64,000 nucleotides of DNA from a virus (taxonomy: Duplodnaviria; Caudoviricetes), in IMG/VR virus record IMGVR_UViG_2915650412_000004, positions 1-64,000 of that record, one strand, 5' to 3'. The stretch's first letter is position 1; each line of letters begins with the position of its first letter. This document shows positions 31,420 through 47,333 of the stretch, in pieces. The translations under genes and the position numbers were made by a program. The notes under the pieces are model-generated. The model did no database searches. It saw only the letters and a list, made by a program, of their open reading frames with translations, and was not told the origin of the DNA.

Positions 31420-31482
31420 AATCAATGGTTTAGCGTGAATTATCGAGAATTGACGGCTTCTCGATGCGACATTGATGCGACA
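31420..31482 (+). promoter_or_regulatory. Putative IHF site and integrase arm-type repeats (left)
   Basis: AATCAAtggtTTA (WATCAAN4TTR) at 31420-31432; GCGACA at 31466 and 31477 (11-bp period), mirrored at 47286 and 47297. Confidence 0.6.
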
Positions 31483-31495
31483 AGAAAGGAAGCAC

Positions 31496-31702
31496 ATGGA
31501 ACAGGAAAAAGAAGGGGCCGACCTGCTCTATGGCGTCCCTGCAATTGCAACGTTCCTCCGTATGAGTGAGCCCGCAGTTTATCATTTATCCCGTCGTGCT
31601 GATTGGCCCGGATTCAAGATCGGCGGCAAGGTCTGCGCTCGCCGCTCAGCAATTGACCAGTGGATTTCCGACATGGAAGCAAAGGCGAGGTCAACACAAT
31701 GA
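31496..31702 (+). CDS. AlpA/excisionase-like HTH protein
   Basis: ADLLYGVPAIATFL...GFKIGGKVCARRSAIDQW. Confidence 0.8.
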   Translation: MEQEKEGADLLYGVPAIATFLRMSEPAVYHLSRRADWPGFKIGGKVCARRSAIDQWISDMEAKARSTQ

Positions 31703-31794
31703 GCGTGGCGTTTCTGCTCGGCTACATGCTGATCTTCGGCGGTGCCATTGTTGGGCCGCGTCTGATGACGCAGGCAGGAAGCGCCGGGAAGTGA
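31699..31794 (+). CDS. Possible 31-aa membrane peptide
   Basis: MSVAFLLGYMLIFGGAIVGP..., ATGA-coupled. Confidence 0.4.
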   Translation: MSVAFLLGYMLIFGGAIVGPRLMTQAGSAGK

Positions 31795-31795
31795 A

Positions 31796-32986
31796 ATGAA
31801 GCGCAAGCACGACATACCGGCATGGCGGCAGCAACAATTGGTCAGGCTGGCCTTACGCCATTCTGAGACAACTAAGGCTGACTGCGCCGTCCTTGCGGAG
31901 ATCGTGCAGCGATACCATGGCGAGTACGGCAACGGCTGGGCCAGCTTCGATATGCTCATTGAAGAGACTGGCCTGCATAAGACCACAATCATCAAGGCAA
32001 AACGCAAGCTTGAACGGCTCGGCTTTGTTTCCGTCCTGTCACCGGGACGCAGGGGCCGCTCAACGGTCTACTTGCCGAATTTTGATTTAGTTCCCGAAAA
32101 AGGTAGTGCACAGACTACCGAAACAAAGGGTAGCGTAGACGCTACCGTAATTGATGGTTTGGGTAGTCAGGACGCTACCGAATATGGCGCTTTAGGTAGC
32201 GTGGACGCTACCACCTCCTACTTACAGTTACCGGTTTACAAAACCGGTATACTGGAAAGTAATATTGACCCTGCTGCGCCGCCCATGGCTGGCCTTACGG
32301 CCGCCAGTGCAGGCGCGCATGGGGAAGGGAAATTCGACCAGCTATATAAAGCGTATGGCCACAGGCGGGGCAGGGCGGATGCTCGCAAGGCATATGAAGC
32401 CCTTGCACTGACCGACGAGGCACATGCCGACATATTGGCCGCCGCTGAGGCATGGCGTCAGGCATGGGCGAGGCAGGGTAATCCTGATGCGCCACGCTTC
32501 ACGCTCGCGAAGTGGCTGGAGCGCGAATGCTACCACGAAGACCCGCCGACCGGCTTTAAGTCCAAAGAGCCGAAGAAACCGAAATCGGAAAGTTTGCCTA
32601 CCCGGAATGCGGCGACGGTAAGCCAGTCCGAAACGCCAGCGCCTGGTGAAGAATATGGCGCTATCGATGTTTGCGCGTTCACTCCTACCGGCACCTTCGA
32701 GGCCGAGATAATCGGCAGCGATGTCATTGCTACCGGGAACGAAGTCGTGTTGCGGCTGAATCTTCAACTGTCTGACGGGAAAGGAACACCTCTCGGTGAG
32801 ACAGCCCATGAATTTTTCGTGCAGGCGAATGAGAAATCCAAACAAGATCGCGGGCAGGCATTCCTTACACAAGTCGCAGAGGCAGTCGGCTTGAGGGCTC
32901 TTGAAGATTCGAGCGATTTTCACGGCAAGCGGTGCCGGGTCACGATCAATAACCGGCGAGAAATCACCTACCACAACACGAGGTAA
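31796..32986 (+). CDS. Satellite replication initiator: N-terminal winged HTH, C-terminal DUF669-like domain
   Basis: WASFDMLIEETGLHKTTIIKAKRKLERLGFV HTH; internal iterons; C-terminus aligns by eye with 11715-12266. Confidence 0.75.
   Translation: MKRKHDIPAWRQQQLVRLALRHSETTKADCAVLAEIVQRYHGEYGNGWASFDMLIEETGLHKTTIIKAKRKLERLGFVSVLSPGRRGRSTVYLPNFDLVPEKGSAQTTETKGSVDATVIDGLGSQDATEYGALGSVDATTSYLQLPVYKTGILESNIDPAAPPMAGLTAASAGAHGEGKFDQLYKAYGHRRGRADARKAYEALALTDEAHADILAAAEAWRQAWARQGNPDAPRFTLAKWLERECYHEDPPTGFKSKEPKKPKSESLPTRNAATVSQSETPAPGEEYGAIDVCAFTPTGTFEAEIIGSDVIATGNEVVLRLNLQLSDGKGTPLGETAHEFFVQANEKSKQDRGQAFLTQVAEAVGLRALEDSSDFHGKRCRVTINNRREITYHNTR
32102..32212. repeat. Four 18-bp palindromic iterons GGTAG-N8-CTACC (satellite origin)
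   Basis: 32102-32119, 32129-32146, 32162-32179, 32195-32212 inside rep, followed by an AT-richer tract. Confidence 0.85.
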
Positions 32987-32988
32987 AT

Positions 32989-33240
32989 ATGGCGAATGAC
33001 TTTTATGACGATGCAGTAGACGAACCAGAAGCCGCGGCACCGGTCCAGCATTTCACCTGCATGATCCAGATCGAGCCGTTTGACGCTGAAACCGAAGACG
33101 ATGAAAAGCTGCGCGTTGTCGGCATTGTGCAAGGCACAGACGATGAAACTTTTGATTTCATCGCGATCAAAACCCTCGAAAATGGCGAGATGTACCCGAC
33201 CCGTGAAGCCACGGTTTGGTCTGTTTCCCAAAAATCCTAA
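32989..33240 (+). CDS. Small acidic hypothetical protein
   Basis: 83 aa, ACACGAGG leader. Confidence 0.65.
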   Translation: MANDFYDDAVDEPEAAAPVQHFTCMIQIEPFDAETEDDEKLRVVGIVQGTDDETFDFIAIKTLENGEMYPTREATVWSVSQKS

Positions 33241-33296
33241 TCACAGATCGTCGTAGCGCCTGCTGTGGTGGCGGGCACCTATTTGCTGCGACAGAT

Positions 33297-33335
33297 CCCC
33301 CGCCCGGTCTCTCCTCCTCGTGTGCCGGGCGGGGG
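33297..33335 (+). ncRNA. Perfect 11-bp hairpin with CU-rich loop TCTCTCCTCCTCGTGTG, 5' of tRNA-Gln
   Basis: CCCCCGCCCGG/CCGGGCGGGGG stem. Confidence 0.6.
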
Positions 33336-33342
33336 CGGTTTC

Positions 33343-33416
33343 TCGGCCTTCGCCTAACGGTAGGGCAGCGCACTTTGAATGCGCCGGTACTGGTTCGATC
33401 CCAGTAGGCCGATCCA
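33343..33416 (+). tRNA. tRNA-Gln(TTG)
   Basis: Acceptor TCGGCCT/AGGCCGA, anticodon stem GCGCA/TGCGC with TTG at 33375-33377, T arm ACTGG-TTCGATC-CCAGT, encoded CCA. Confidence 0.9.
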
Positions 33417-33660
33417 TTTTTTCAAATACGGAGGCTATCGCCCATGACGGAATCCGATCATGCCGAAAACAGCGAATCCGCATTCGACGGCGCTCATCGT
33501 GGTCGGCGCATAAGTTGGGCCGAGTTATACCGGCAACGCCCGGACTTGAAGTCAAATTCTGAAAATCGAAAAGCCGCCGACGAGGCAGCTTAACGACCAA
33601 AAGCGCACCGCGCTTATTTCACCCACCAATTCCCAATTCTGCAAAATAGGAGGCGTCCCG

Positions 33661-34176
33661 ATGCGCAAATCGGCCGTCATTGAAATCCTTGCGCGCCGGC
33701 TCCGCATAGCGCCCGGACGCATTCAAGCAATCGCGGATCGCTTGGCCTCCGCTGGCCTGATTTCGAACGCCGAGGGCAGTAGGCGATATCCTCCTGACCT
33801 GTCCGAACCTGAAATCGTCACGCTGGTTATCGCGGTCATCGCCGATAGTGGCCTTGGCAACGTGAAAGCGACAGTTGACACGTTCTCGTCCTTGGCCAGC
33901 GAAGGGATTGCCTTCGGACACGTTCTTCAACGTGTGCTGTTCGGCCGCCCGGTGGATATCGCACACGTCATCGTCCGTCATGACCCGGCAGGAGTGTCGG
34001 CGGTGATCGACGGCAATCATGCCGTCTATGGCGCTGAAGCACCTGAAAAAGCCGCAACGACGGCGCGCATCATTCCGGGCGATGCACTGATTGCCATCGC
34101 CGCAGAACTGCAAGGCCAGCACCCCCAGCAGGCGGATGCCTTGGTCGAACTTATCAAAATTCGGAGATCGCTATGA
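33661..34176 (+). CDS. Satellite hypothetical protein (possible HTH N-terminus)
   Basis: 171 aa, GGAGG RBS. Confidence 0.7.
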   Translation: MRKSAVIEILARRLRIAPGRIQAIADRLASAGLISNAEGSRRYPPDLSEPEIVTLVIAVIADSGLGNVKATVDTFSSLASEGIAFGHVLQRVLFGRPVDIAHVIVRHDPAGVSAVIDGNHAVYGAEAPEKAATTARIIPGDALIAIAAELQGQHPQQADALVELIKIRRSL

Positions 34177-34463
34177 GCAAGGTTGAAGCGCTGCTCGACC
34201 GTTTGGCGGAAGCCACCGCCGAGTCCGACGACTACGCCGAACTGCCGCCCGAACTCGCTAAAGAGGCAAGGCTGCATGTCTGGGATGCGCATTACGCCAA
34301 TTCAGACGAACGCGCCCGCTTGGACGCGAAACTGGCCGCTTCATCGCCTGAATTTCAGGCTGCTGTCGCGGTCACCGAAACGGCGCTGGCCGAAGAGCTT
34401 GCCGCCAATAATGAGCGACGCGCCCGCGTTCGCAGAGAAAACCCATCTTATTTCAAGGACTAA
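34173..34463 (+). CDS. Satellite hypothetical helical protein
   Basis: 96 aa, coupled between 33661 and the capsid gene. Confidence 0.65.
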   Translation: MSKVEALLDRLAEATAESDDYAELPPELAKEARLHVWDAHYANSDERARLDAKLAASSPEFQAAVAVTETALAEELAANNERRARVRRENPSYFKD

Positions 34464-34465
34464 CT

Positions 34466-35557
34466 ATGACAAATCTCGCAACTATGATTTCCGATCTGGG
34501 CAATGAATTCAAAGCCAGCACCGGCGACCTTTCCTCCCGCATCAGCGAGCTCGAAAAGCGTGCGGCTCGCGAGCCTTCCGGTGATATGCTCTATGCAAAT
34601 GGCGAAACTATCGCCGACAAGATGGTAGAATCCGCAGCCTTCAAGTCGCTGGAGGGTGGTCGCGTCCGTGGCCGTGCGCACGTCGAAATGGCGGCCATCA
34701 CTTCCGGCAACACTACCGTTGGCACTGGTCGCTCCGCAGCTACTTCGCTGGTGGGTGCTGATCGCCGCCCTGGCATTGTTACACCTGCCGAGCGCGTCCT
34801 GACCGTCCGTGACCTTATCGCTCCGGGCGAAACCAGCGCGGGCTCAATCGAATACGTGAAGGAAACGGGCTTTACCAATAATGCCGCTCCCGTCGCTGAA
34901 ACGACGCAGAAGCCTTACTCCGATCTGACATTCGATCTGGTGACGGCACCGGTCCGCACGATTGCGCACCTTTTCAAACTGTCAAAGCAGATCATGGACG
35001 ATGCGCCCGGTCTCGTCAGTTATGTGAACGTGCGCGGTACGTCGGGCCTGAAGCTCAAGGAAGAGAACCAGCTTCTCTTCGGCGACGGTACAGGTCAGAA
35101 CCTTTTGGGCCTGATTCCACAGGCAACCGTATTCGATGACGCGCTACGCTCCACGGGCGACACCCGCGTTGACACTCTGCGCCGTGCTATCCAGCAGGTA
35201 CGCCGTGCCGAATACCGCGCATCCGGCATCATCATGAACCCGGACGACCTCGCCGACCTTGAACTGACCAAGGACGCCGGCGGCAACTACATTATTGTCG
35301 ATCCCGTTGAAGGCGGTCAGGGCCGAGTGTGGCGTCTGCCTATCGTGGACACCACTGCAATGCCAGCGGGTCAGTTCCTCGTTGGTGCGCTCGATACGGC
35401 TGCCCAACTTTTCGACCGTCAACAGGTGATCTTCGAAATCTCGACTGAGAACGCCGACGATTTCGAAAAGAATATGGCGACTGCTCGTATCGAAGAGCGC
35501 CTGGCTCTTGCCGTGTATCGTCCGGAAAGCATCGTTACCGGCCAGTTCGAAGCCTAA
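34466..35557 (+). CDS. HK97-fold major capsid protein paralog (satellite)
   Basis: Long identical blocks with the helper capsid (ITSGNTTVG, RDLIAPG, VKETGFTN, DDAPGL, GDGTGQNL, RIEERLALAVYRPE). Confidence 0.92.
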   Translation: MTNLATMISDLGNEFKASTGDLSSRISELEKRAAREPSGDMLYANGETIADKMVESAAFKSLEGGRVRGRAHVEMAAITSGNTTVGTGRSAATSLVGADRRPGIVTPAERVLTVRDLIAPGETSAGSIEYVKETGFTNNAAPVAETTQKPYSDLTFDLVTAPVRTIAHLFKLSKQIMDDAPGLVSYVNVRGTSGLKLKEENQLLFGDGTGQNLLGLIPQATVFDDALRSTGDTRVDTLRRAIQQVRRAEYRASGIIMNPDDLADLELTKDAGGNYIIVDPVEGGQGRVWRLPIVDTTAMPAGQFLVGALDTAAQLFDRQQVIFEISTENADDFEKNMATARIEERLALAVYRPESIVTGQFEA

Positions 35558-35721
35558 TCACGTTCAGGCGCCGTGAATGTCCGGCTGGCCCTGTCGGCAA
35601 GTTATGGAGCGCGGCGCCGTCCTCCTGAGAGCGCTTCACAACATGGGCACGCCGCTGGCTGGAGTCCCCCGCTTTCGAGCGCGCAGCCAGCGGCTCTTCC
35701 TTTTCAAGAATGGAGATATCA

Positions 35722-35931
35722 ATGCCTGTAGGCAGACTAAAAGCATGGCGTAACGGCTATGGCTTTCTCACAACGGACAACGGTTCGGACATGTTCGTCC
35801 ATATCACCGCATTCCAATTCGCGGGCGAAGAGCCAGAAGTGGGTGCCTTTTACTCGTACAAGGCCGGGATGTTTAAGGACAAGATTATCGCGACCCATCT
35901 GAAGCGTGTGGATGATCATGGCGACGGGTAA
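35722..35931 (+). CDS. Cold-shock domain protein
   Basis: GRLKAW...GYGFL...DMFVHITAF. Confidence 0.85.
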   Translation: MPVGRLKAWRNGYGFLTTDNGSDMFVHITAFQFAGEEPEVGAFYSYKAGMFKDKIIATHLKRVDDHGDG

Positions 35932-36148
35932 GGTCCTCTTTTTCCACAATGGCTACGGCTTCATCGCTGCCGAGCCTTGCAACGTTTTCTTCCATCGCGC
36001 TGCCGTCGATGGCGATGTGCCAAAGGCTGGCGATATGGTCCGCTACGATGCCATGCCAAGTGGCAGGAGTAGCCCTAAGGCGAACAGCGTTCGCGTCATC
36101 GACCAGGACGTCTTGGCCGAAGCTGAGCGGGTGTTTGGGTCGCAATGA
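35918..36148 (+). CDS. Cold-shock domain protein (divergent)
   Basis: TGKVLFF.NGYGFI...NVFFH...GDMVRY...KANSV. Confidence 0.75.
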   Translation: MATGKVLFFHNGYGFIAAEPCNVFFHRAAVDGDVPKAGDMVRYDAMPSGRSSPKANSVRVIDQDVLAEAERVFGSQ

Positions 36149-36441
36149 GTAGAGGTGAAAGCGCAGCTTGGCAGCACCTTTATAAGCGGTCGAGATGGAT
36201 CAAGATGCGTGAGCGACATCTGATGCAGTCGCCCTTGTGCGTTTATTGCCTTGAGGTTGGCAACGTGGAGCCTGCCACGATTTGTGATCATCGCACCCCG
36301 CATAGAGGGAGCGAGGATCTCTTCTGGGACGCTGACAATCTCATGTCCCTTTGCAAGCCCTGTCATGATCGGATCAAGCAGCGCGAAGAACGCGGAGAGA
36401 AGGTCATTCGATTTGGCGCGGACGGATACCCCATCGAGTGA
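36145..36441 (+). CDS. Terminase-associated HNH endonuclease (satellite)
   Basis: CVYC...ICDHRTPHRG...NLMSLCKPCHD; paralog of 28692-28982. Confidence 0.88.
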   Translation: MSRGESAAWQHLYKRSRWIKMRERHLMQSPLCVYCLEVGNVEPATICDHRTPHRGSEDLFWDADNLMSLCKPCHDRIKQREERGEKVIRFGADGYPIE

Positions 36442-36540
36442 CCACCCACCCATAAGGGGGGCAATCGAAGTCTGGAAGCCGCTCGCTCTAGGAGCGGCCC
36501 GGACCCACAACGCATACACGTGCTGCCCCGGTTCAAATAA
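36439..36540 (+). promoter_or_regulatory. Putative satellite cos/packaging region
   Basis: Same HNH-terS position and shared sequence blocks as 28980-29065. Confidence 0.55.
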
Positions 36541-36554
36541 AAATTGGAGGCTCA

Positions 36555-36911
36555 ATGCCCAAAAACCCCACAAATTCAGCGGTCAAACCGCCAAAACACC
36601 TGCGAAAACCAACGCAAAATTGGTTCAAATCTGTAATAGACGACTTCGATTTGGAGCCTCATCATATCAAATTGCTAACTCTTGCTGCTGATGCGTGGGA
36701 TCGGGCGGTCTCTGCGCGCGAAGTAATCGACGCGGATGGGATGACTTACACCGACCGTTTCGGGCAGCCGAAGCCACGCCCAGAAGTCGCAATCGAGCGT
36801 GACTCCCGCATCGGCTTCACCCGCCTTATTCGCGAGCTTGCTTTGGATGGCGTGGATGCTCCAGAAACGCCGCGCCCACCGCGCACTGCCGACTACGGGA
36901 ATAGGCGCTGA
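36555..36911 (+). CDS. terS: Terminase small subunit, P27-like (satellite)
   Basis: PPKHL...W...GMTYTDRFGQPKPRPEVAIERDS...RELAL. Confidence 0.82.
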   Translation: MPKNPTNSAVKPPKHLRKPTQNWFKSVIDDFDLEPHHIKLLTLAADAWDRAVSAREVIDADGMTYTDRFGQPKPRPEVAIERDSRIGFTRLIRELALDGVDAPETPRPPRTADYGNRR

Positions 36912-37147
36912 TGCCCGTTCGTCGCAAAGCCGATAGACGACGCACGACGTTTCTGTTTGAAGATTGGGGGGAATTCCTCGGCACCGGCATCGACATGTTC
37001 TCCGATCTTCACCACGCCGGGATTACGGTCGACCACGAGCCGCCGCCACGCGAACTGGCCGAACAGGCTTGGCGCGCTCTTGGTGCGCAGATTGTCTCCG
37101 CCTATGGCACCGAGTGCTGGGGCGCGCGCGAATTTGGGCAATCCTGA
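36911..37147 (+). CDS. Satellite hypothetical protein
   Basis: 78 aa, starts MPVRRKADRRR. Confidence 0.6.
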   Translation: MPVRRKADRRRTTFLFEDWGEFLGTGIDMFSDLHHAGITVDHEPPPRELAEQAWRALGAQIVSAYGTECWGAREFGQS

Positions 37148-37419
37148 TGCCGGTTCGGAAAAGACACAACCGGCGAGCCGACCGAGTGGATTTCGAGATT
37201 ACGCCTGAAATACGCGCCGCGTTTGAAGCCTACATCGAAAGCGAACCCGTCGAGGGTGGCGGTTGGCGTGAGCATTGGCGTTTGCACGATCTACTGCATG
37301 AGGCGGGCGTCTTGAGGCTGCCATATTGCCCGCCGTGCTGCTTCCATCCACAGGATCACGGAACCAGATGGCAATATGCGCCCCATGCTGTGGCCATCTA
37401 CCGCCATCTTTCACAGTAA
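37147..37419 (+). CDS. Satellite hypothetical protein
   Basis: Start moved to MPVRKRHNRRA (coupled); similar N-terminus to the preceding ORF. Confidence 0.55.
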   Translation: MPVRKRHNRRADRVDFEITPEIRAAFEAYIESEPVEGGGWREHWRLHDLLHEAGVLRLPYCPPCCFHPQDHGTRWQYAPHAVAIYRHLSQ

Positions 37420-37421
37420 AT

Positions 37422-37445
37422 GCCCGCCGTTGAGCGGGCTTTTTT
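37422..37445 (+). terminator. Rho-independent terminator
   Basis: GCCCGC-cgttga-GCGGGC-TTTTTT. Confidence 0.7.
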
Positions 37446-37458
37446 ATGAGGTACATTC

Positions 37459-37827
37459 ATGTCCGATAAGCCTTTTTCACAGATTACGCAGCCATTTGGC
37501 GACGGCGAATATAACTTCGCGCTGACTTGGGATGGCGCGATTGAGTGGGAAGAAAAAACGAGCCGTAGCCTTTATGGCACCTTCAAATTTATGGCCGAAC
37601 ATCAAAGTGGATTGGTTGCCGATGTGCGCGAAATTATCCGCATCGCATTAGTCGGTGGCGGACTGGCTCCGATACGGGCTCTGTCGCTGGTCAAGCGATA
37701 TGTGGAGGGGCGTCCGCTTGATGAAAGCCTACCCGTCGCACTGAGCGCAATCGAGGCTTTCCTTTTCGGTCCCGACGATAAATCCGGCGACACCGCCAAG
37801 ACGGGAGAAGTCCCAGCCGATGGCTAA
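37459..37827 (+). CDS. Tail assembly chaperone-like protein (GTA gp10-like), satellite copy
   Basis: FGDGEYNFALTW...IRIALVGGGL...ALSLVKRYVE aligns with helper 54756-55196. Confidence 0.78.
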   Translation: MSDKPFSQITQPFGDGEYNFALTWDGAIEWEEKTSRSLYGTFKFMAEHQSGLVADVREIIRIALVGGGLAPIRALSLVKRYVEGRPLDESLPVALSAIEAFLFGPDDKSGDTAKTGEVPADG

Positions 37828-38260
37828 GAAATGGCACGCATCGGCAGCGTTCAAAAAGAGGCTGGCGAAGCTGCCGGCATCTGTTCTCAAAAGGACCAAT
37901 GAGGCCATCAAGAAGAACGCCGAGGAATGGGTGGACTGGGCGCAGAAGATGGCCCCGGAAGACCCGAAAGACGGCATTCATCTGAGGCCTTCGATCCGCA
38001 ATTACGAATCTGAAACCGGCGGCCAGGTGGTTCGTGCAGGTGGCGAGGCGACAACCGTGAACGGTTACGATTATGCCCTTGGCGTCGAGTTTGGAACCGC
38101 GCCTCACATCGCAGGCGGTCAATTCGAAGGTGCGCATCATCCGGGTACGTCAGGGCAGCCGTTCTTTTGGCCCTCATATCGAATGCTGCGAAAGCGAATG
38201 TCTGGTCGTCGCCGACGCGCACTGAATCAAGCCGTGAAGGATTTCAACGATGGCAAGTGA
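37820..38260 (+). CDS. HK97 gp10-like neck/tail completion protein, satellite copy
   Basis: AQKMAP, YALGVEFGT, PGTSGQPFFWPS; paralog of 52529-52996. Confidence 0.8.
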   Translation: MAKKWHASAAFKKRLAKLPASVLKRTNEAIKKNAEEWVDWAQKMAPEDPKDGIHLRPSIRNYESETGGQVVRAGGEATTVNGYDYALGVEFGTAPHIAGGQFEGAHHPGTSGQPFFWPSYRMLRKRMSGRRRRALNQAVKDFNDGK

Positions 38261-40466
38261 ACCCGCCCTCTATGCTCGTATGGAAATGCGCGTGAAAGAT
38301 GCCGAGAAGCAACTGGCGAAGTTCAGTCAGCGACTCGACCAATCGGCCGGCAGCATGGAGCGGCGATGGAGCCGTGCCTCCAAAAACATGCAGACGTCAA
38401 TGTCAAAGGCATTCGGCGGCAGCAGTTTGGCGAAGGGCATTTTTGCGGGCGTTTCGGCTGCGGGCGCAAAAGAACTGATTGACGCCGCTATCCGTATCGA
38501 GAATGCGTTGAAAGTGGCCGGCCTGTCTGGCCAGCAATTGAATGACGTATATGACCGCCTGTTTCAGAGTGCGACCAAAAACGCAGCGCCACTTGAAACA
38601 CTGGTCACGCTGTACGGCCGCGTTTCCTTGGTCCAAAAGAACCTCGGTGCATCGACCGAAGATCTTTTGAAATTCACCGATAGTATCGCCATGGCGCTAC
38701 GGGTGGCAGGCACTAGCCCGGAACAGGCCAGCGGCGCTTTGCTCCAGCTTTCGCAGGCTCTCGGCAGCGGGACGGTGAGAGCAGAAGAATTCAATTCTAT
38801 GATGGAAGGCGGTTTGCCGATCCTTCAAGCCGCGGCAGCGGGCATCAAAGAGGCTGGCGGCGATGTCGCGAAGTTGCGCAACATCATGCTGGACGGTGAA
38901 TTATCTTCAAAGGCGCTCTTCAAAGGCATTGAGGCCGGAACGCCCATTCTGGAAGAGCGGCTCGCGGGCGCTGTTCTGACAATTGATCAGCGCATGACGA
39001 ATCTGAAAACGGCGCTGGTCGATGCGGCGAAGCGCTTTAATAACTCGACGGAGGCAGCCAATACCTTCGGCACCGCCATCGACAATACCGCTGCGTTTAT
39101 CAACAATATCAACTTTGAGACGTTCATCTCCAAGATAAATCAGGTTGTGGAGGCTTTTGCCAGAGGCCAGGCGGCTGCCAATAACTTTGCCAATGACGTT
39201 GGCGCGGCTCTCGGTCTGGATAATATCGGCAAGTTGCTAACCGGCGGCGAAGCGCAGAAGAGCTTCCTTGGTGGTGCGTTGACGATTACGTCATCGAAAG
39301 TTATTCAAGACCGCATTACCGATGCATTCAAGGGCGGTGCAGTCGAGGGCAGTGCCGAAATGGACAAGGTTCTGCGCGAGAAGTACGGGAAAGGCGCCCG
39401 CCTTAAGCCAGAAAGTACAAACCCCGGCACCACTGCGCAATTCACCCCAGTATCCATCAAGGATTTCCCCGCAGACGGTGCCGGCAAGGATAAGAAGAAG
39501 AAAAGCGGCAGCAAAACCCACGCCAAAACCGCTGACCAGCAGATCGATAGCGACATTCAGTCGGTCCGCGATCGAATTGCAGCGATGCAGCTTGAAACGC
39601 AGCTTGTAGGCAAGTCGTATCAGGAGCAGGAAAAGCGGCGTATGTCGCTGGAGCTGGAGCAGGCAGCACTCGCCAAGCTTCGTGACGAGGCGATCAAGAA
39701 AGGTCAGACTGACCTTTCGAATATCAAGATTTCAGAAGAAACACGCGGCAAGATTGACGCTGTGTCCGAGGCTTATGCAAGGCAAGCAGAAGAACTTCGC
39801 CGAGTTCAAGACCAGCAAGACCGAGCAGAGCAGGCGGCAGACGATTTCTACGATACGTTCAAAAGCAGCACGGTGGGCGCAATTACCGGCGCTAATAGCC
39901 TTGCCGACGCATTGCAGAACATTGCGAATAAGCTGGCAGACCTCTTCTTGAGTGCAGGTTTCGATGCCTTGTTTAAGCCATCTTCTGGCGGGGTCGGAGG
40001 CGGTGCCTTCGGAAGTATATTCAGCGGGCTGGGCAAGCTCATCGGCTTTGACAGCGGCGGCTACACGGGCCCCGGTGGCGTTAAGCAGCCAGCAGGCGTC
40101 GTTCACAAAGGTGAGGTCGTATGGTCCCAAGATGACATTCGCCGCGCCGGAGGCGTCGGTAAGGTCGAAGCCATGCGTCGCGGCCTTGCTGGTTACGAGC
40201 GGGGCGGGGCGGTGAGTATGCCTTCACTATCGGCACCGCGTATGCCCGACCTTTCGCGCATCACGAACAACAGTAATAGCACGGTCAACAGCGCGCCTGT
40301 GATTAACGTGACTGTGAATGGGGCTACTGGCGATAAGGAAATTGAGGCTCGCGCTTTCTCTGGCGCCCAGAGAGCGATCATGCAGTGGCAAAAAACGCCG
40401 TATTTCGCCCAAGCCGTTGCTGGCGGCGTTAAACAGGCAAATAAGCGCGGGATGCTACCCCGCTAA
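38250..40466 (+). CDS. Tape measure protein, satellite copy (738 aa)
   Basis: LLQLSQALGSGTVRAEEFNS tape-measure motif; GFDSGGYTGPGG...HKGEVV C-terminal motif. Confidence 0.88.
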   Translation: MASEPALYARMEMRVKDAEKQLAKFSQRLDQSAGSMERRWSRASKNMQTSMSKAFGGSSLAKGIFAGVSAAGAKELIDAAIRIENALKVAGLSGQQLNDVYDRLFQSATKNAAPLETLVTLYGRVSLVQKNLGASTEDLLKFTDSIAMALRVAGTSPEQASGALLQLSQALGSGTVRAEEFNSMMEGGLPILQAAAAGIKEAGGDVAKLRNIMLDGELSSKALFKGIEAGTPILEERLAGAVLTIDQRMTNLKTALVDAAKRFNNSTEAANTFGTAIDNTAAFINNINFETFISKINQVVEAFARGQAAANNFANDVGAALGLDNIGKLLTGGEAQKSFLGGALTITSSKVIQDRITDAFKGGAVEGSAEMDKVLREKYGKGARLKPESTNPGTTAQFTPVSIKDFPADGAGKDKKKKSGSKTHAKTADQQIDSDIQSVRDRIAAMQLETQLVGKSYQEQEKRRMSLELEQAALAKLRDEAIKKGQTDLSNIKISEETRGKIDAVSEAYARQAEELRRVQDQQDRAEQAADDFYDTFKSSTVGAITGANSLADALQNIANKLADLFLSAGFDALFKPSSGGVGGGAFGSIFSGLGKLIGFDSGGYTGPGGVKQPAGVVHKGEVVWSQDDIRRAGGVGKVEAMRRGLAGYERGGAVSMPSLSAPRMPDLSRITNNSNSTVNSAPVINVTVNGATGDKEIEARAFSGAQRAIMQWQKTPYFAQAVAGGVKQANKRGMLPR

Positions 40467-40533
40467 GCGTATTGGATGCCCTTCGGGGTGTCCTGTAACC
40501 GCCTATTGATATTGATGATTGGCGCCTGTCGCA

Positions 40534-40548
40534 GAACGTGATTGGAAC
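40534..40548 (+). promoter_or_regulatory. LexA box upstream of the TA pair
   Basis: GAAC-gtgattg-GAAC (GAAC-N7-GAAC). Confidence 0.55.
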
Positions 40549-40614
40549 AATTCTCAGGCGTTCCTATATAAAACGCTGAACATGTATGAAAAATGTACAG
40601 GTCAGCTAAGCTTG

Positions 40615-40649
40615 CGTGCTACGAAACGAGACGCGAGTTTCGTAGCACG
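40615..40649. repeat. Perfect 13-bp inverted repeat upstream of the TA pair
   Basis: CGTGCTACGAAAC-N9-GTTTCGTAGCACG. Confidence 0.7.
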
Positions 40650-40716
40650 TTGCTTAACATTCGTCAATATGTTAAGTGATGGCATTAACTGAACACCAGA
40701 CAGAAAGGAACGTGCA

Positions 40717-40911
40717 ATGGCAGTTATCTCAAGCGCGTTCGGTCAGGTGAAATTGACCGATGACGACGCTAAGAAGTTTCGTAATCAGGTGACATTCGGT
40801 AAACCAAAAGCAGCCGCACATGAGACTGTCAAGAAAGGGCGCGAGCTCTTCAAGGAGTTTCAGGGCAAGGGTAAAGTGAAGTTTACCGTCAAGGCAGCCA
40901 CGGGGGAATAG
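40717..40911 (+). CDS. Putative antitoxin (64 aa)
   Basis: Small ORF abutting the GNAT gene; VKLTDDDAKKF resembles the toxin-binding end of DUF1778 antitoxins. Confidence 0.65.
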   Translation: MAVISSAFGQVKLTDDDAKKFRNQVTFGKPKAAAHETVKKGRELFKEFQGKGKVKFTVKAATGE

Positions 40912-41442
40912 TTGCCGAACGACGAATTCGAAGTTGAACTAAGACTGATAGAGCCCAGTGATAAAGTCACTGGGCTTTCTCTTGGCAGTGAGGAGTTCAC
41001 GCCGCTGAAGATGTTTATTCAGCGGAAAGCCAAGGATTATCAGGTCAATAGTTTTGCCAGGACTTATGGTCTGTTTGGCCCTGAGGCGAAACTGATCGGT
41101 TATATCACGCTCATCTGCGGCGAGATCCTGACAAAGACGCCCCAGGACGTGATTCCGCCAGAACAGATCTACGACTACAAAACATTTCCATCTGTGAAGA
41201 TTGCCCGCCTTGCCGTCGACAGACGATATCAGGGCAAGGGACTGGGCGATTATCTGGTTTCTTTTGCGATAGGTGTTGTCAAGGACGCGATTGCGCCTCA
41301 CGTCGGTTGTCGTTTCGTCGTTGTTGATTCGAAACAGTCAGCGGTGAGGTTTTATGAGCGTCTCGGCTTCACGCTGCTTGATACAGCTACGAACAGGGCC
41401 AACGAACAGCCGGTGATGTATCTCGACATCCTTAAAGCCTGA
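40912..41442 (+). CDS. GNAT-family toxin (AtaT/TacT-like)
   Basis: IGYITL, PSVKIARLAVDRRYQGKGLGDYL, FVVVDSK...AVRFYERLGF. Confidence 0.85.
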   Translation: MPNDEFEVELRLIEPSDKVTGLSLGSEEFTPLKMFIQRKAKDYQVNSFARTYGLFGPEAKLIGYITLICGEILTKTPQDVIPPEQIYDYKTFPSVKIARLAVDRRYQGKGLGDYLVSFAIGVVKDAIAPHVGCRFVVVDSKQSAVRFYERLGFTLLDTATNRANEQPVMYLDILKA

Positions 41443-41625
41443 TTAGCGTTGATTTCTCAATGATGCGTTCCTGAGCGCCCGTCGTAGGGCGTTTCACCCG
41501 GGATTCCTGTGAACATCCCCTAGCATCAGGGCGGCGCGGGTTGTGCAGGTGGTCCCTTCCAATCATTCTACCTTGGGGCGAGACAGGGAGATAAATGCAA
41601 CCTAACTCACCAAAGCGAGATCACC

Positions 41626-41856
41626 ATGAATACCATTCCTTACACCGCGTCTCTTTCCTGCGGCACTTGCGGCACAAAGGGCGTTCGAATTGACGACGAT
41701 GCGGACGAAAATTCCATCGTTAGATGTAAGAATCCCGACTGCGACACAACTTTCGGCACTTGGGGAGATGTCCGAAAAATGGTTCGCGAAAAAACGGCGA
41801 AGAAAGCCAAGGATGACATCGTTGCATCGCTGAGAAAATCTCTGCGGAAGAGATGA
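41626..41856 (+). CDS. Small Zn-ribbon protein
   Basis: CGTCG...CKNPDC. Confidence 0.65.
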   Translation: MNTIPYTASLSCGTCGTKGVRIDDDADENSIVRCKNPDCDTTFGTWGDVRKMVREKTAKKAKDDIVASLRKSLRKR

Positions 41857-41930
41857 CGTGCGGCGCCCTTCGGGGCGTCTCAACGTCAACTATAGATTGA
41901 TTATTCCACCGAGAACAATTATTCAACCTC

Positions 41931-43109
41931 TTGGTGGAGGGGCTTGTGAAAAAACTAACAATTCGTTATCGGCGCCGGCTTTTATATTGGGCTAACAAAA
42001 GGTCGCGCAAGAAAAACTCAGGCACGGCCAAATTTGGTTATGTTCTGAGCGCAGATAGATTCGACCAAGTAAGGCTACCGTCAAACGCGATACAGATGCC
42101 GAAAGTGTTTTGTTTAGTGCAAAACACCGAACAAACGCTGTCGTTTCTGGAAAAAACGAGGCAGCGGTTGCTTGCCCCCCCATTGTCTGGAACGAGGTCT
42201 CTCGCGGCACATGTAACTGGGAAAAGGAAAAATAAATCCGCGCCGCGATGGATAGGCCCTTATGTTGACTTTACAACCATAGAATTCATCAGCCCAGCCG
42301 CGGCTCTGGTGCTTGCTGCGGAATATCACAGGGCTGTTCTACTGAAAGAACAGAGCACGAAGAATATTTCTCGGCTGTTCTTGGTCGACGTTCATAAATG
42401 GAAGGCAAATGTAATAGAGAGCTTGATTGAAGTAGGATTCTTTGAGCTTTTGAAAATCACTGAAGGTGTACAGGCGCCAGAAGAGGGGGACCGGAAAATT
42501 CTAAAACTTCGCAGTGGCAGTCGAAATCAAGCTGATGAAGTGGATGGATTGCTCAATAGTATTGAGGAAATGTTCAGTGGTGTAGGTTTGAACGCCAACG
42601 ATGCGTGCTTTGAACTTAACGGCGCATTGGGCGAGGCAATGGAGAATGCAGTCCGTTGTGCCTATCCAACTGAAATTTCTTTTGGCCGACCTCATGTTTC
42701 AAAGTGGTGGATGACAGGATCACTTTCGAAGGCTCAGCGTCAAATGACTGTGGCGATATATGATCAGGGAGTATCTATACCAGGTTCGCTTAGTAGTTGG
42801 CAGCTTTACGGTGGATTCCTAAACCGATTTCTAAGGAAGTTCGGTATGGCAAGAGATAGCGCCGACCCCAGATTTGATGGAGATGTCATCGCACTGGCAA
42901 TCGATGAATCTGTTACGTCTACGGGATTGCAAAAACATGGTAAGGGTTTGGGTCATATAAAGGCTTTTATCGATTCCTGTAGCGCTGGCAGTCTGTTAAT
43001 TATAAGTAGGCAGGGAATGTATATATATGAAAAAGGGAAGCCGCCTCTCACGTACAATTTACCGATAAGATTATCAGGTACATTGATCCAGTGGAACGTT
43101 GTAATTTAA
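41931..43109 (+). CDS. Histidine-kinase-like (GHKL) ATPase domain protein
   Basis: LGEAMENAVRCAY (N box), AIYDQGVSIPGSL (G1), GKGLGHI (G2), GTLIQW; AT-rich; start uncertain. Confidence 0.78.
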   Translation: MVEGLVKKLTIRYRRRLLYWANKRSRKKNSGTAKFGYVLSADRFDQVRLPSNAIQMPKVFCLVQNTEQTLSFLEKTRQRLLAPPLSGTRSLAAHVTGKRKNKSAPRWIGPYVDFTTIEFISPAAALVLAAEYHRAVLLKEQSTKNISRLFLVDVHKWKANVIESLIEVGFFELLKITEGVQAPEEGDRKILKLRSGSRNQADEVDGLLNSIEEMFSGVGLNANDACFELNGALGEAMENAVRCAYPTEISFGRPHVSKWWMTGSLSKAQRQMTVAIYDQGVSIPGSLSSWQLYGGFLNRFLRKFGMARDSADPRFDGDVIALAIDESVTSTGLQKHGKGLGHIKAFIDSCSAGSLLIISRQGMYIYEKGKPPLTYNLPIRLSGTLIQWNVVI

Positions 43110-43139
43110 TGGGAGTTAACCTTTAGAAGGTTAAATCAA

Positions 43140-43502
43140 ATGAGCTTGAGAGTCATCGAAGTGCTGGATATTGGAAGAGATTTTACACTGACGCCTGGTG
43201 CTCGGTATAAAAAGCATGGAGATTTTTCTGGCGAAGAATTTCGAACTAAACTTCTGGCTCCTGCTTTGCGGCGTGTAATCAATGCCGACGGGGTTCTGAA
43301 TGTTGTCATTGATACTGTGAAAAGAAGCTATCTGGTTTCTTTTTTAGACGAAGCTTTTGGCGGTTTAATAAGAGACGAAGGCTTTTCTCTAGAGCAAACA
43401 AATCAGCATTTAAATATTGTAAGCTCGAATAAGCGATTCGAGAAATATAGAATACTAGCAAAAAACTATATTCTCCGGGCATCTGAAGAGCATGCCAAGT
43501 AA
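43140..43502 (+). CDS. STAS-like (DUF4325-like) protein
   Basis: GARY...SGEEFRTKLL...SFLDEAFGGL. Confidence 0.78.
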   Translation: MSLRVIEVLDIGRDFTLTPGARYKKHGDFSGEEFRTKLLAPALRRVINADGVLNVVIDTVKRSYLVSFLDEAFGGLIRDEGFSLEQTNQHLNIVSSNKRFEKYRILAKNYILRASEEHAK

Positions 43503-43977
43503 CATTAGCCCAATTTTGCCAATTGTTAGTTTGCTGAGCGCATTTATAGGAGCCGCCGCTGCACTCTTTGGTCACCGCTGGCGTTACCGTGCAGATTACC
43601 GAAATCATTTGGTTACACAACTTATCACCACAATTACCAATGTTGCGGATCTTTCAACCGATTATTGGCTCATGGAAATACATTCTCCAAGCTCTGCTAA
43701 CGCATTGGAGCAAGCTAAGATCGAGGCAAAAATAGAAGGCTTGGTCGAAAAACTGGACGGCAGTATTGAAATAGTTCGACCGCACTTGAGCAAAATTGAT
43801 ATGTTGGGAATTGATATTCCTGCATCTAGGTTTGTTGATGCCTTAACCGGTGGTCAGTTCTCTGTGCCAGCTCGTGCTCAAGATGCTGAACGTGCAAAAG
43901 AGGCACAGGCAGCTGCGGCCTTCTTGATATTGGAGATATCTAAAGCTGCGAATCGTCGAGTACTTGGCATTATGTAG
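43492..43977 (+). CDS. Membrane-anchored hypothetical protein
   Basis: N-terminal TM (ILPIVSLLSAFIGAAAALFG); overlaps the STAS gene. Confidence 0.7.
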   Translation: MPSNISPILPIVSLLSAFIGAAAALFGHRWRYRADYRNHLVTQLITTITNVADLSTDYWLMEIHSPSSANALEQAKIEAKIEGLVEKLDGSIEIVRPHLSKIDMLGIDIPASRFVDALTGGQFSVPARAQDAERAKEAQAAAAFLILEISKAANRRVLGIM

Positions 43978-44103
43978 AAGTTAATATTGGAAATTCTAGT
44001 ACTAACTTTAGATAGGCTTTAACCAACACGGTATTACTGACTTGTGCTCTTAAAGCATTCCAGTTCCAACCGATTGCGGAATTCAGCTATCGCGGTCATG
44101 AAG

Positions 44104-44460
44104 CTACATCGATATGTCGTTAAGCTGCCAGCTATTACCTTCAGGCATATAAGTCACGTCAGCGCGGTATTGAGTTCTCAATTTCGCTCCGAACGAGTTT
44201 TCAGCATCCACGTAGGCATTTACGGTGTATTTGCACCTATCGCGCTCAACCACGCTCACACCGTCAGAATTCGTGCCCCATGGGAATGAGGCTGTGGCGG
44301 GTGCTTTGAGGCGCTTCTTTACGAATTCCTGAGAGATCACGAAGGCCATGGTCTTTGAACCACATGCGTTCGGGTCTTTTCTCTTATTCACCTCGCTATA
44401 CAACCACGCTGCACCGATAATTGTGGCCAGGACTACGATTGCCTTACGTCTTTGCCCCAT
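44104..44460 (-). CDS. Membrane-anchored hypothetical protein
   Basis: N-terminal TM; VKKRLKAPATASFP...VDAENSFGAKLR. Confidence 0.75.
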   Translation of the reverse strand: MGQRRKAIVVLATIIGAAWLYSEVNKRKDPNACGSKTMAFVISQEFVKKRLKAPATASFPWGTNSDGVSVVERDRCKYTVNAYVDAENSFGAKLRTQYRADVTYMPEGNSWQLNDISM

Positions 44461-44489
44461 GAAATCCCCCGGTTGAACGGGCTTTCCAT

Positions 44490-44850
44490 AGCATAGGCAA
44501 GCCTTGCCCCGAAAGGGGAGACTTTAACTTGAATTTTACGATGATTTCGGTAAGGGTATTCGCGGAGCCTGAGAACTCCCGAAGCCGTCCCTTGCCGGGG
44601 ATGGGCTTCATCCGCGATAGGAACAGATCAGCCTTGCCGGGCATGATGTGTTCCGAATTACGACGCGCCCCTTTGCCGTGGGCGTGACCGGCACACTATT
44701 GCCGGGAGTGCCACGGTGCGTCAAGAGGAATCTTGACCTCAATAAAGAAGGCCATGGCGCATGTTCTCGCGGACATGTTCTCAGACTCCCGGCGCCAGTG
44801 CTGATCACTGGTTCACCCGACACGAAAGCCCTGAGAAGCGGACGTGTTCG
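44490..44850 (+). promoter_or_regulatory. Structured leader resembling ash/C4-type immunity regions
   Basis: TTGCC(G/C) repeated five times, GCCGGGAG (44701)/CTCCCGGC (44786) pairing, CCTGAGAA repeated at ~44566 and ~44830. Confidence 0.4.
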
Positions 44851-44869
44851 GTTTTACCGCGAGACCACA

Positions 44870-45139
44870 ATGATTCACCCAGATATTGCGCCTGCCATGA
44901 GTGCGGGCATTTTCCTACAATTCGTCAGGCGAAGCATCGCGGACGAAATTGAGCGCTTGATTTCCATCCTAGATCAGATCGACGGCGACGCCGATCTAGA
45001 ACCGTCATTGGGCGAATACAGCCCGTTCGGCGTGGATGTTGAATGCGACAATAGCGACCTTGAACCAGATGAAGAGGGCGGCTTTGACGAAGAGCCATAC
45101 GACGGCTTTGCCCGCGAGTATTGGGAGGCGCGGGCATGA
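44870..45139 (+). CDS. Acidic hypothetical protein
   Basis: IERLISILDQIDGDADLEPSLG; may be the C-terminal part of a longer ash-like ORF from 44648. Confidence 0.6.
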   Translation: MIHPDIAPAMSAGIFLQFVRRSIADEIERLISILDQIDGDADLEPSLGEYSPFGVDVECDNSDLEPDEEGGFDEEPYDGFAREYWEARA

Positions 45140-45372
45140 GCAGCGTCCACAAAGACAGCAATAGGATTGTGATAGACGGCTACAACAGTCTGACAGCGGC
45201 TATATTCAGCGAAGATCGAATTTGTATCGAGGTCGATGACGAATCGGCTGGTGATACAGAAACGGGCTTTGGTGCGACAGCCCGCATTTATCTTTCGCCA
45301 GACGAAGCCATTGAACTTGGTTCTTGGTTGATTCAGGCGGGGACGACTGCCGGTAAAGGCGGTGCAGCATGA
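45136..45372 (+). CDS. Satellite hypothetical protein
   Basis: ATGA-coupled. Confidence 0.6.
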   Translation: MSSVHKDSNRIVIDGYNSLTAAIFSEDRICIEVDDESAGDTETGFGATARIYLSPDEAIELGSWLIQAGTTAGKGGAA

Positions 45373-45815
45373 CCGACCTTTGCCAACTGGAAGCAGCCCT
45401 TCACGACATTCGCCGATCAAACCAGATCATGGAAGTCCTGATCGAAAGCGTCTCAAGTAATGTCAAGGCGCTGATGTCGGTAGCGAATCTCCCTGCCGGG
45501 ATTACGGCTGACGATAGACTGCTCGAATTTGAGATCAATCGTCAGAGCAGGCATTGTGCCGACGCTGAAACGATCCTCGCAGGAATGCAGAAGCGTGAAC
45601 CCGAAACCGCGGCGAATGTGTTCCTCCTCAATTTGAAGCGCACCGACCTACAGGACGGCACCGAAATCATTCTCGCCGGGAAGCCGCATACCATATCGCG
45701 TTCCTTGATAGGTCCCGATTGGTGGGATTGTCGTCAGGACGGCGAACTCATGGCGTCATTCCCCGCCAGACACCTGTTGAAACATGCATGGGTGCAGGGT
45801 GCCAAGCGTCACTGA
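45369..45815 (+). CDS. Satellite hypothetical protein
   Basis: 148 aa, ATGA-coupled. Confidence 0.6.
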   Translation: MTDLCQLEAALHDIRRSNQIMEVLIESVSSNVKALMSVANLPAGITADDRLLEFEINRQSRHCADAETILAGMQKREPETAANVFLLNLKRTDLQDGTEIILAGKPHTISRSLIGPDWWDCRQDGELMASFPARHLLKHAWVQGAKRH

Positions 45816-45913
45816 CAGGGAAATCATTGCCCTTGCTATCCTGATCGGCGTTGTTCTCGCCGGTCAGGGCTTCAACGGAACAGAACACCTCATTTTACCT
45901 TGAAGGAGAGAAC

Positions 45914-46117
45914 ATGACACACGGGGAAGATAAAGCCGACCTGCTTTATGGGGCGCGGCCTATCGCGGATTTTCTAGGAATGACCGAGAAGCAGGCACGT
46001 CACAGGATTGATGACGGGCATATTCCAACTTTCCGCATTGGCGGCACGATCTGCTCAAGGAAGAGCACCCTGACAAAGTGGCTAGATGAAATGGAAGCGC
46101 AGGAGGCGCGGAAATAA
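45914..46117 (+). CDS. AlpA/excisionase-like HTH protein (paralog of 31496-31702)
   Basis: ADLLYGARPIADFL...TFRIGGTICSRKSTLTKW; coupled to the integrase. Confidence 0.82.
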   Translation: MTHGEDKADLLYGARPIADFLGMTEKQARHRIDDGHIPTFRIGGTICSRKSTLTKWLDEMEAQEARK

Positions 46118-47313
46118 TGGCGAGCGTTCGAAAACGCGAGTGGGAATACAACGGCGCTAAAAAAACAGCGTGGGTGGTAAATTACACCGATCTGGACGGA
46201 AAGCGCCGACTGAAGACATTCGAGAAGAAGAAAGACGCAGATGCTTATCGAGCCAAGGTCGAGGTCGAAGTTGAAGCCGGTTTGCATACCCCGGCGAGTT
46301 CCAAGCGCACAGTCAAGCAGGTTGCCGAGGAATACATCAAGAACTTGGAGTCGCGGTTGGCCGATGGCCGCATCAGCCTCGGATATCTGAAATGCTCAAA
46401 AAGCCGCATCGACAAGCATGTGGTGCCGTTTTTTGGACAGCGGATGTTCGATGAACTGAGCTTAGCGGACTTTGAGGGCTTCTATGATCACCTCGTTACC
46501 AAGGCCGGCAATGCGCCGTTCACAGCGAAAGAAATAATTGCACAGGTAGCCACTATGGAGAAATTCGCAGCTAAGCGCACGATTCCGACGAAATATGCTG
46601 CACGAGAAATGGTCGAAGAATTACGCGGGGTCAAAAGAGGAAAGATTGATACCTTCACCCGCGAACAGGCTATCGCCATTCTTGAAGCTTCTAAGGTGCG
46701 CGAACGGCACCGACAAGCGCGCAATCAAAAGCTTATAGAACTCATGGTGCATTTAGCCGCCATATGCGGCATGAGGCTTGGCGAAATCACTGGATTGAAA
46801 TTGCCCCACGTTAATCTGGAACGGCGGGTGCTAGAGGTCCGGCACAGTATGCAGCCGAATGGTGAGTTGAAAGCCCCCAAAACCAAATCCGGTATACGTG
46901 ATATACCGATGCCAGACGCAATCCACACCATGTTCAAAGAATGGCTGGAACGTTACTATATCCAAAATGACCGGGAGCTTGTTTTCCTGACCTATAACGG
47001 CGGCCCTATGCATCGTCTCGATATCCACCGGCAATGGGTTGATTTGCTCAAGCGGTCGGGCGTGGGTGAAAATGGTCCGTCAGGAACACGATATCATTTT
47101 CATGCCCTTCGCCATTTTGCTGCCAGCTGGATGGTCGATAACAATCTGCCGGTTACTGATGTGGCTCATATTTTAGGGCACAGCAAGTTCGATATGACCC
47201 TACAAGTTTACGCGCATCCATTGCGTGACCAGCGGGAGCGTCACAATGCAATGCAGAATCTTGCTGCCGGATTGCAGCCGTCGGCGCGACAAGAGAGCGA
47301 CAAAGCCGCTTAA
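46117..47313 (+). CDS. int: Tyrosine integrase (satellite)
   Basis: GMRLGEITGL, PKTKSG, FHALRH, LGHSKFDMTLQVYAH (R-K-H-R-H-Y). Confidence 0.95.
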   Translation: MASVRKREWEYNGAKKTAWVVNYTDLDGKRRLKTFEKKKDADAYRAKVEVEVEAGLHTPASSKRTVKQVAEEYIKNLESRLADGRISLGYLKCSKSRIDKHVVPFFGQRMFDELSLADFEGFYDHLVTKAGNAPFTAKEIIAQVATMEKFAAKRTIPTKYAAREMVEELRGVKRGKIDTFTREQAIAILEASKVRERHRQARNQKLIELMVHLAAICGMRLGEITGLKLPHVNLERRVLEVRHSMQPNGELKAPKTKSGIRDIPMPDAIHTMFKEWLERYYIQNDRELVFLTYNGGPMHRLDIHRQWVDLLKRSGVGENGPSGTRYHFHALRHFAASWMVDNNLPVTDVAHILGHSKFDMTLQVYAHPLRDQRERHNAMQNLAAGLQPSARQESDKAA

Positions 47314-47333
47314 ATCGCTGATTTCATTGGCAC

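Follow-up and report, generated by a model that had tools for sequence, protein, structure and literature searches.

How could an element that has its own tape-measure protein (TMP) and lacks a tail tube gene take part in building a phage tail? This question is raised by positions 1 to 64,000 of the IMG/VR virus record IMGVR_UViG_2915650412_000004 (64,000 nucleotides, hereafter the window), in which a 16-kb satellite element (31304–47354, + strand) carries three tail genes at 37459–40466. The element is bounded by 21-bp direct repeats (31304–31324 and 47334–47354; identical at 20 of 21 positions), and the repeat is the 3' end of the large terminase gene terL itself. As judged from its flanks, the element has integrated into the terL 3' end of a prophage resembling Sinorhizobium phage NV1.1.1, referred to below as the outer, carrier or helper prophage. 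In our reading, to which we assign a probability of roughly 0.6, the three genes make up a functional tail-core cassette belonging to the satellite, which would give chimeric tails built from helper tube on the satellite TMP. The earlier note on this DNA had proposed that the satellite templates helper tube subunits with its own TMP and chaperone, and this is the best-supported reading, with the three genes conserved and under purifying selection and the tube specifically missing.

The three translationally coupled + strand open reading frames (ORFs) encode a tail assembly chaperone (TAC, 122 aa, 37459–37827), an HK97-gp10-family tail completion protein (TCP or gp10, 146 aa, 37820–38260) and the TMP (738 aa, 38250–40466). 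Start and stop codons overlap by 8 nt between TAC and TCP (GATGGCTAA) and by 11 nt between TCP and TMP (GATGGCAAGTGA), a usual sign of such coupling. The TAC ORF matched Pfam family Phage_TAC_11 (PF11836, the RcGTA g10-type chaperone; E 6.5e-9) and phrog_8985 (E 1.1e-17). The TCP ORF matched HK97-gp10_like (PF04883; E 7.5e-5, 24.1 bits against a curated cut-off of 21.4) and phrog_5 ("tail completion or Neck1"; E 9.5e-13). The TMP ORF matched TMP_3 (PF20155; E 3.5e-48), phrog_17300 (E 2.8e-80) and more than 20 tape-measure PHROGs, and consists of a conserved helix at residues 1–50, the TMP_3 domain at 75–265 and a conserved C-terminal region at about 410–670. These matches bear out the positions and families that had been given for the three ORFs.

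The outer prophage has its own tail shaft genes at 52529–58797 (+ strand), with gp10 at 52529, terminator at 53812, tube at 54277, TAC at 54756 and an 805-aa TMP at 56380, so that the helper paralogs of chaperone, gp10 and TMP exist as claimed earlier. In BLASTP comparisons, the satellite and outer prophage proteins were 29%, 33% and about 30% (over two blocks) identical for TAC, gp10 and TMP, respectively. A recent duplication of the helper genes is rejected because the identity is only 29–35%, and the trio consists of ancient paralogs that come from another phage lineage. The two TMPs show no alignment over their last ~70 residues, which fits the different C-terminal motif previously noticed. 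Six-frame Pfam searches of the whole genome found no tube (Phage_tail_2) and no terminator (Tail_completion_gp17) inside the element; these families matched in the outer prophage and in two or three loci elsewhere in the genome, and three tube genes were counted in the genome, one in the outer prophage and two further ones. The remaining ORFs of the element gave zero tail-related matches in Pfam and PHROG, with no tip or hub family, in agreement with the absence of tube, terminator and tip genes reported before. The parts beyond the trio (tip, tube and terminator) are, by gene content, available from the outer prophage, whose tail shaft genes are the likely source of the borrowed parts.

The chaperone gene was also inspected for a gpGT-type frameshift extension. 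It contains no XXXYYYZ slippery heptamer, and across 15 relatives the -1 frame stays open beyond the chaperone stop for 12 to 134 codons; therefore the extension is not conserved, and its absence, already suspected, is confirmed. A TAC–TCP frameshift fusion in place of gpGT was considered as well and rejected, as gp10 starts at an ATG of its own and no slippery site is present. Furthermore, gp10 lies in the +1 frame relative to TAC in most relatives and in the -1 frame in L053 and L066 (loci of the comparison set are designated by L numbers), which also counts against a fusion.

Two "Rhizobiales bacterium" genomes (L038 and L039) contain close relatives of the satellite TMP, and gp10-like relatives occur in assemblies of Brucella intermedia, B. 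lupini, Agrobacterium and Rhizobium and in IMG/VR, which also holds predicted proviruses and yielded relatives of 9–18 kb. Small hidden Markov models (HMMs) for nine virion proteins were scanned over 90 loci. In 20 of them gp10 stood directly before TMP with no tube nearby, and most of these had TAC directly upstream. The tube-less loci lie in 9–18-kb islands with various integrases (P4-type and other tyrosine types), alpA and replication genes, and the trio was found in islands with different integrases and integration sites. Their head genes also differ, comprising MCP (major capsid protein) alone, S78 protease with MCP, or protease with the small terminase gene terS. Maximum-likelihood analysis of gp10 placed every one of the 18 distinct tube-less rows in one clade (support 92/86; inner node 100/99), whose sole tube-bearing member is the phage fragment L063; protein identities within the clade reach down to about 46%. 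MCP-TAC-gp10-TMP, or gp10-TMP alone, occurred in 6 of 400 sampled species genomes of the host family, this one included.

Selection was estimated by the Nei-Gojobori method from unsaturated pairs only (dS 0.2–1.2). The dN/dS ratios were 0.04 for TAC (against L038 and L039), 0.05–0.09 for gp10/TCP and 0.09–0.13 for TMP, in the same range as those of MCP (0.01–0.08) and terS (0.08–0.15). The gp10 proteins of L047 and L048 were identical at a dS of 0.41. The trio is thus intact, conserved and under purifying selection, and it is not a relic.

The TCP provided a structural link to the TMP. A profile of 18 satellite gp10 proteins matched one PDB chain, 9mu2_P (E 1.7e-5). The AlphaFold model of the satellite TCP (pLDDT 76) had the same chain as its single credible Foldseek match (TM 0.50/0.65, E 0.04), and the fold assignment therefore relies on the profile match that agrees with it. 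With a Pfam score over the cut-off and an 80alpha gp51-like fold, the protein is placed in the HK97 gp10/TCP family. Chain 9mu2_P is 80alpha gp51, the tail completion protein of the SaPI1 neck, which Kizziah et al. (bioRxiv 10.1101/2024.12.10.627806) equate with lambda gpZ, SPP1 gp16.1 and HK97 gp10. In that 80alpha/SaPI1 neck structure (9MU2), one TCP copy sits within the neck, where it caps the DNA end and, together with residues 1–37 of three TMP copies, forms a beta-sheet and a five-helix bundle. The genes for 80alpha gp51, lambda gpZ, SPP1 gp16.1 and HK97 gp10 lie between the head-closure and terminator genes, whereas the gene studied here is satellite-encoded and sits between those for TAC and TMP.

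The first ~50 TMP residues (MA.EP.LYARMEMRV.DAEKQLAKF...) are conserved across the TMPs of the satellite family and are shared by bodies of different Pfam families (TMP_3, TMP_2 and PhageMin_Tail). With the window's proteins as reference, the identity of TMP residues 1–50 ranged from 33% to 92% across loci and tracked that of gp10. The gp10 identities of L054, L046, L047, L049 and L066 were 90%, 87%, 66%, 62% and 46%, and the corresponding identities of TMP 1–50 were 78%, 76%, 66%, 50% and 33%, respectively; for the helper the two values were 35% and 14%. Over TMP residues 51–350, identity falls to about 20% in most pairs. This co-variation fits a cognate pair of TCP and TMP N-terminus. Given the contact seen in 9MU2, and with TMP 1–50 tracking gp10 while the TMP body is swapped, the trio would consist of the TMP plus two likely binding partners.

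Complete phages point to the source of the TAC-gp10-TMP order. Some have the order HCP-gp10-gp17-tube-TAC-TMP (the outer prophage, L051 and L052), and 27 loci have HCP-gp17-tube-TAC-gp10-TMP; the satellite trio corresponds, in gene content and order, to the second arrangement minus the tube. The order was therefore inherited and is not an invention of the satellites, and the idea that it is unique to them was given up, as many complete phages share tube-TAC-gp10-TMP. In satellites L039, L054 and L056–58 the terminator gene gp17 is placed after TMP, where it is absent from the window's element. These satellites keep both neighbours of the tube gene, and so only the tube, the high-copy subunit, was dropped, which makes the omission specific. 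Separately, a large group of complete siphophages in IMG/VR (L078–L132) has the tail completion gene between TAC and TMP, at the place where other phages encode the chaperone frameshift extension.

From these data the following course of events may be proposed. Once late genes are expressed by the surrounding NV1.1.1-like prophage or by another siphophage in the cell, the satellite TAC is predicted to coat the satellite TMP during assembly, and the TMP–TAC complex would dock on, or nucleate at, the helper tail tip. Helper tube subunits would then polymerise around the satellite TMP, the helper terminator would cap the shaft, and the satellite TCP would join the TMP N-termini to the end of the packaged DNA. 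The outcome would be chimeric tails, about 10 nm shorter than those of the helper if length scales with the difference of 67 residues; the arithmetic given earlier (67 residues × 0.15 nm) holds, and the figure is a calculation, not a measurement. We infer that satellite proteins are incorporated into virions and that the element benefits from this. One candidate benefit is freedom from inhibitors or exclusion systems that target the helper TMP, by analogy with PLE11 and Rta. Another candidate is entry into helper lysogens, which hold the integration site of the element, and interference with the helper may be a further one.

Several observations weigh against a working cassette of this kind. 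A strong terminator-like hairpin (37422–37449, + strand; GCCCGCCGTTGAGCGGGC followed by TTTTTT; 6–7 G-C pairs, seen on both strands) lies directly upstream of the trio, between it and the terS block, and ends 10 nt before the TAC start codon; it presumably acts as a terminator and would separate the terS block from the tail genes. L055 has nearly the same carrier (terL 98% identical) and a satellite TMP with a very different body, so that any matching between TMP and helper is loose. In L039 (Rhizobiales AFS097852), gp10 (9571–10011) has an in-frame TAG/TGA-type stop at codon 25 and TMP (10001–12207) is frameshifted near residue 560, with MCP, HNH, terS and TAC intact; these disruptions are either recent decay or an assembly error. 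L038 keeps the trio without a capsid gene upstream and may be a remnant. Individual copies of the module thus decay and the module can be lost, unless the L039 disruptions are assembly errors. Finally, the link between TMP 1–50 and gp10 could reflect plain DNA adjacency and the position of recombination breakpoints.

The trio might instead work in the way proposed but on the tails of another helper, such as a C23-type prophage of the same genome or an external phage, with the carrier supplying only packaging and head parts. The C-terminal third of the satellite TMP is 54–56% identical to the TMPs of C23 (54%) and C1 and only ~29% identical to that of the carrier, and the three tube genes in the genome and the other TMP allele beside nearly the same carrier in L055 point in the same direction. 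However, C23 pairs this C-terminal type with a distal tail protein, encoded after its TMP, that is 72% identical to the carrier's, so the carrier tip may fit. This pairing is circumstantial evidence for compatibility between the satellite TMP and the helper tip. Residence inside the carrier's terL also ties induction of the element to the carrier phage, and we regard the use of another helper as rather unlikely.

Less probable still is that the satellite TMP, TAC and TCP serve interference only, titrating or misassembling helper tail parts while the satellite itself is carried by normal helper tails. Sabotage of helper assembly is common among satellites, the assembly of tails is among the known targets (PLE11 Rta and the Tai systems), and proteins only 29–35% identical to their helper counterparts could form mixed, non-productive complexes. 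A decoy, on the other hand, would have no use for a co-adapted set of three proteins that includes a chaperone and a full-length TMP whose N- and C-terminal ends are conserved, purifying selection is seen over the entire TMP, and in the Vibrio cholerae satellites known as PLEs deletion of tmp cut satellite transduction by 96–99.9% (PMC12987554). That the trio is what a decayed prophage left behind, with no present function, is highly improbable: the L039 lesions, the missing capsid gene of L038 and the absence from the window's element of the gp17 gene kept after TMP in some relatives would suit it, but dN/dS ratios of 0.04–0.13, a clade of at least 18 tube-less loci over several genera, intact att sites and integrases, preserved start/stop overlaps and an element order (MCP, HNH, terS, TAC, gp10, TMP) that is unreachable from a phage by deletions alone speak against it, and the scenario of relics under relaxed selection in relatives, raised in the earlier note, is rejected for the family.

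The preferred reading, a satellite cassette that makes chimeric tails, has a close precedent. PLEs (Nature 2026) encode a TMP, a TAC and a baseplate hub protein (BhuB), and their chimeric tails were shown by electron microscopy, western blot, mass spectrometry and deletions (PMC12987554). PLE11 virions contain the TMP and BhuB of the PLE without those of ICP1, and their tails are ~10 nm shorter than those of ICP1; putative tmp genes were also noted in PLE-like elements and in some phage-inducible chromosomal islands of the capsid-forming type (cf-PICIs) (PMC12987554). Together with TMP-bearing Extracellular Prophage-Inducing Particles (EPIPs) (PMC12822802), these findings mean that the idea is not unprecedented, contrary to what had been thought. 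As in PLEs, the satellite TMP and chaperone are distinct from those of the helper (20% identity there, ~29% here), the tube is absent, the tail genes are conserved across the satellite family, and the predicted tail is ~10 nm shorter (95 aa fewer in PLEs, 67 here). In contrast to PLEs, the helper is a temperate HK97-like siphovirus and not a virulent myovirus, the third partner is a neck-end TCP and not the tip-end hub protein BhuB, and there is an MCP paralog, where PLEs have no capsid gene paralog. No Rta-like inhibitor was identified in the element. The comparison of proteins with PLE covers TAC only: a search of the satellite TAC against PDB gave no chain at E≤1 beyond chance matches, and thus no match to PLE1 TAC 5IR0.

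EPIPs of Mycolicibacterium aichiense carry a TMP, and their tail length differs from that of the helper (bioRxiv 2025, PMC12822802). Like the element described here, they are small (11 kb), have terS, MCP and TMP and no tail tube, and use a prophage as helper. Unlike it, they have a serine integrase, head-to-tail adaptor, stopper and scaffold, and no TAC or TCP has been reported for them; they are actinobacterial, their tails are longer and variable in length, and they induce their helper. The integrase in the window is a tyrosine recombinase (PF00589), and Pfam and PHROG scans of the ORFs in 31304–47354 detected no adaptor or stopper family and no portal, protease or terL.

With cf-PICIs (Alqurainy et al.) the element has in common an integrase-alpA-rep island, an HK97-fold capsid protein, HNH, terS and the use, presumed here, of helper tail parts. 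However, cf-PICIs encode terL, portal, protease and head-tail connectors, none of which is present here. The element, with its MCP paralog and without portal, protease or terL, therefore falls outside the cf-PICIs. It resembles SaPIbov5-type cos PICIs, which have the capsid homolog Ccm, in having an MCP paralog and in its presumed dependence on helper HNH/terS/terL cos-type packaging. SaPIs are not known to carry tail genes. In general make-up the element is a PICI-like satellite, falling in the 10–18 kb size range, with integrase, alpA/xis, rep, att repeats, packaging and capsid genes and an incomplete virion set, and it is predicted to be induced by the helper and packaged in helper particles. 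Literature searches found no description of this satellite family, and absence there is not proof. A separate locus of the same genome, C1:582873–598668, carries int, alpA, portal, MCP, gp10, gp17, HCP, terL and a 668-aa TMP and has no tube; it resembles a satellite of the cf-PICI type that brings its own TMP and fits the cf-PICI pattern better than the element in the window. Its gp10-gp17-HCP-terL order (compare L143–L159) was present in roughly 13 of the 400 species genomes from the host family.

Relatives of the element interrupt other late genes. In L054 the helper MCP is split (3296–4300 and 19670–20017; HMM positions 29–317 and 312–401) around an element of ~15 kb with the repeat TACATCTGGCAGCC. 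In L048 terL is divided by an element into ATPase and nuclease halves (5007–5819 and 16065–17144), and in L055 (1936–3873) the element occupies the same 3' site of terL as in the window. The satellite family seems to target helper structural genes for integration. As the sites lie in helper late genes (the terL 3' end, mid-terL and mid-MCP), members of the family would have to enter cells that already hold the helper prophage. We tentatively consider, as possible though doubtful, a Rhizobiales-wide satellite family with a private "TMP axis" of TMP, chaperone and neck protein, in which genome delivery would be independent of the helper TMP and the divergent TMP and TCP would bypass superinfection exclusion by the helper or a satellite-encoded inhibitor of the helper TMP.

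The proposed mechanism of tail building is plausible, has a precedent and is partly supported. Manipulation of tail assembly by a satellite was demonstrated only in 2026, in one myovirus system, and it was in 2024 that a structure first revealed a TCP touching the TMP N-terminus. The present family adds an unrelated siphovirus-based lineage (Brucella/Ochrobactrum, Agrobacterium and Rhizobium) with the same logic and a different third partner. It lets one compare, as a natural experiment, the tail proteins that have to match their TMP with those that can be borrowed, and it makes the little-understood function of gpZ/gp10-type proteins accessible to genetics. Because the satellite sits inside its helper, the helper is known, which makes this a tractable case for asking why satellites replace the TMP.

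The flanks of the element are colinear with Sinorhizobium phage NV1.1.1 (OP484858). The left flank has the order clamp, helicase, methylases, primase, tRNA-Met, HNH, terS and terL, and the right flank the order portal, S49 protease, MCP, neck, tube, TAC, TMP and tip, both in common with NV1.1.1. The gap between terL and portal is 13 nt in NV1.1.1 and 16 kb in the window, where the outer prophage terL (29392) and portal (47365) flank the element. The tRNA-Met gene at 28310–28386 lies inside the outer prophage and is common to phage NV1.1.1.

The left part of the element contains an alpA-like gene (31472), the replication initiator gene rep (31796) and a tRNA-Gln (33343–33416). These are followed by the MCP paralog (34466–35557, + strand, 363 aa; PF05065, E 2.8e-58), which is 57% identical to the MCP of the outer prophage and has a dN/dS of 0.06–0.08, a cold-shock-domain (CSD) gene (35906), an HNH endonuclease (36145–36441, + strand; PF01844) and a P27-type terS (36555–36911, + strand; PF05119). 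Two small ORFs between terS and the chaperone (36911–37147, 78 aa, and 37144–37419, ~91 aa) gave no Pfam or PHROG match and are 72–80% identical in L038, L039, L046, L054 and L055; they are candidates for an assembly-redirecting or inhibitor function. Cargo genes 3' of TMP comprise a toxin-antitoxin-like pair of a small ORF and a GNAT acetyltransferase (40717–41442) and an AT-rich block (41931–43977, GC 0.44) that encodes a HATPase_c_2 (GHKL) protein and a DUF4325/STAS-like protein and holds a further ORF. The remaining genes are another xis-like gene (45851) and the integrase (46117).

When the element was compared at nucleotide level with the phage collection, only capsid and TMP fragments (64–70% identity) and no related whole element were returned. 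The integrase had no close relative in 300 species genomes of the host family (best 36% identity) and is therefore not useful as a family marker. In the outer prophage, a 259-aa ORF (53023–53802) between gp10 and the terminator is 33% identical to an early-region protein of NV1.1.1 (10730–11455 of that record) and appears to be an insertion in the helper neck module.

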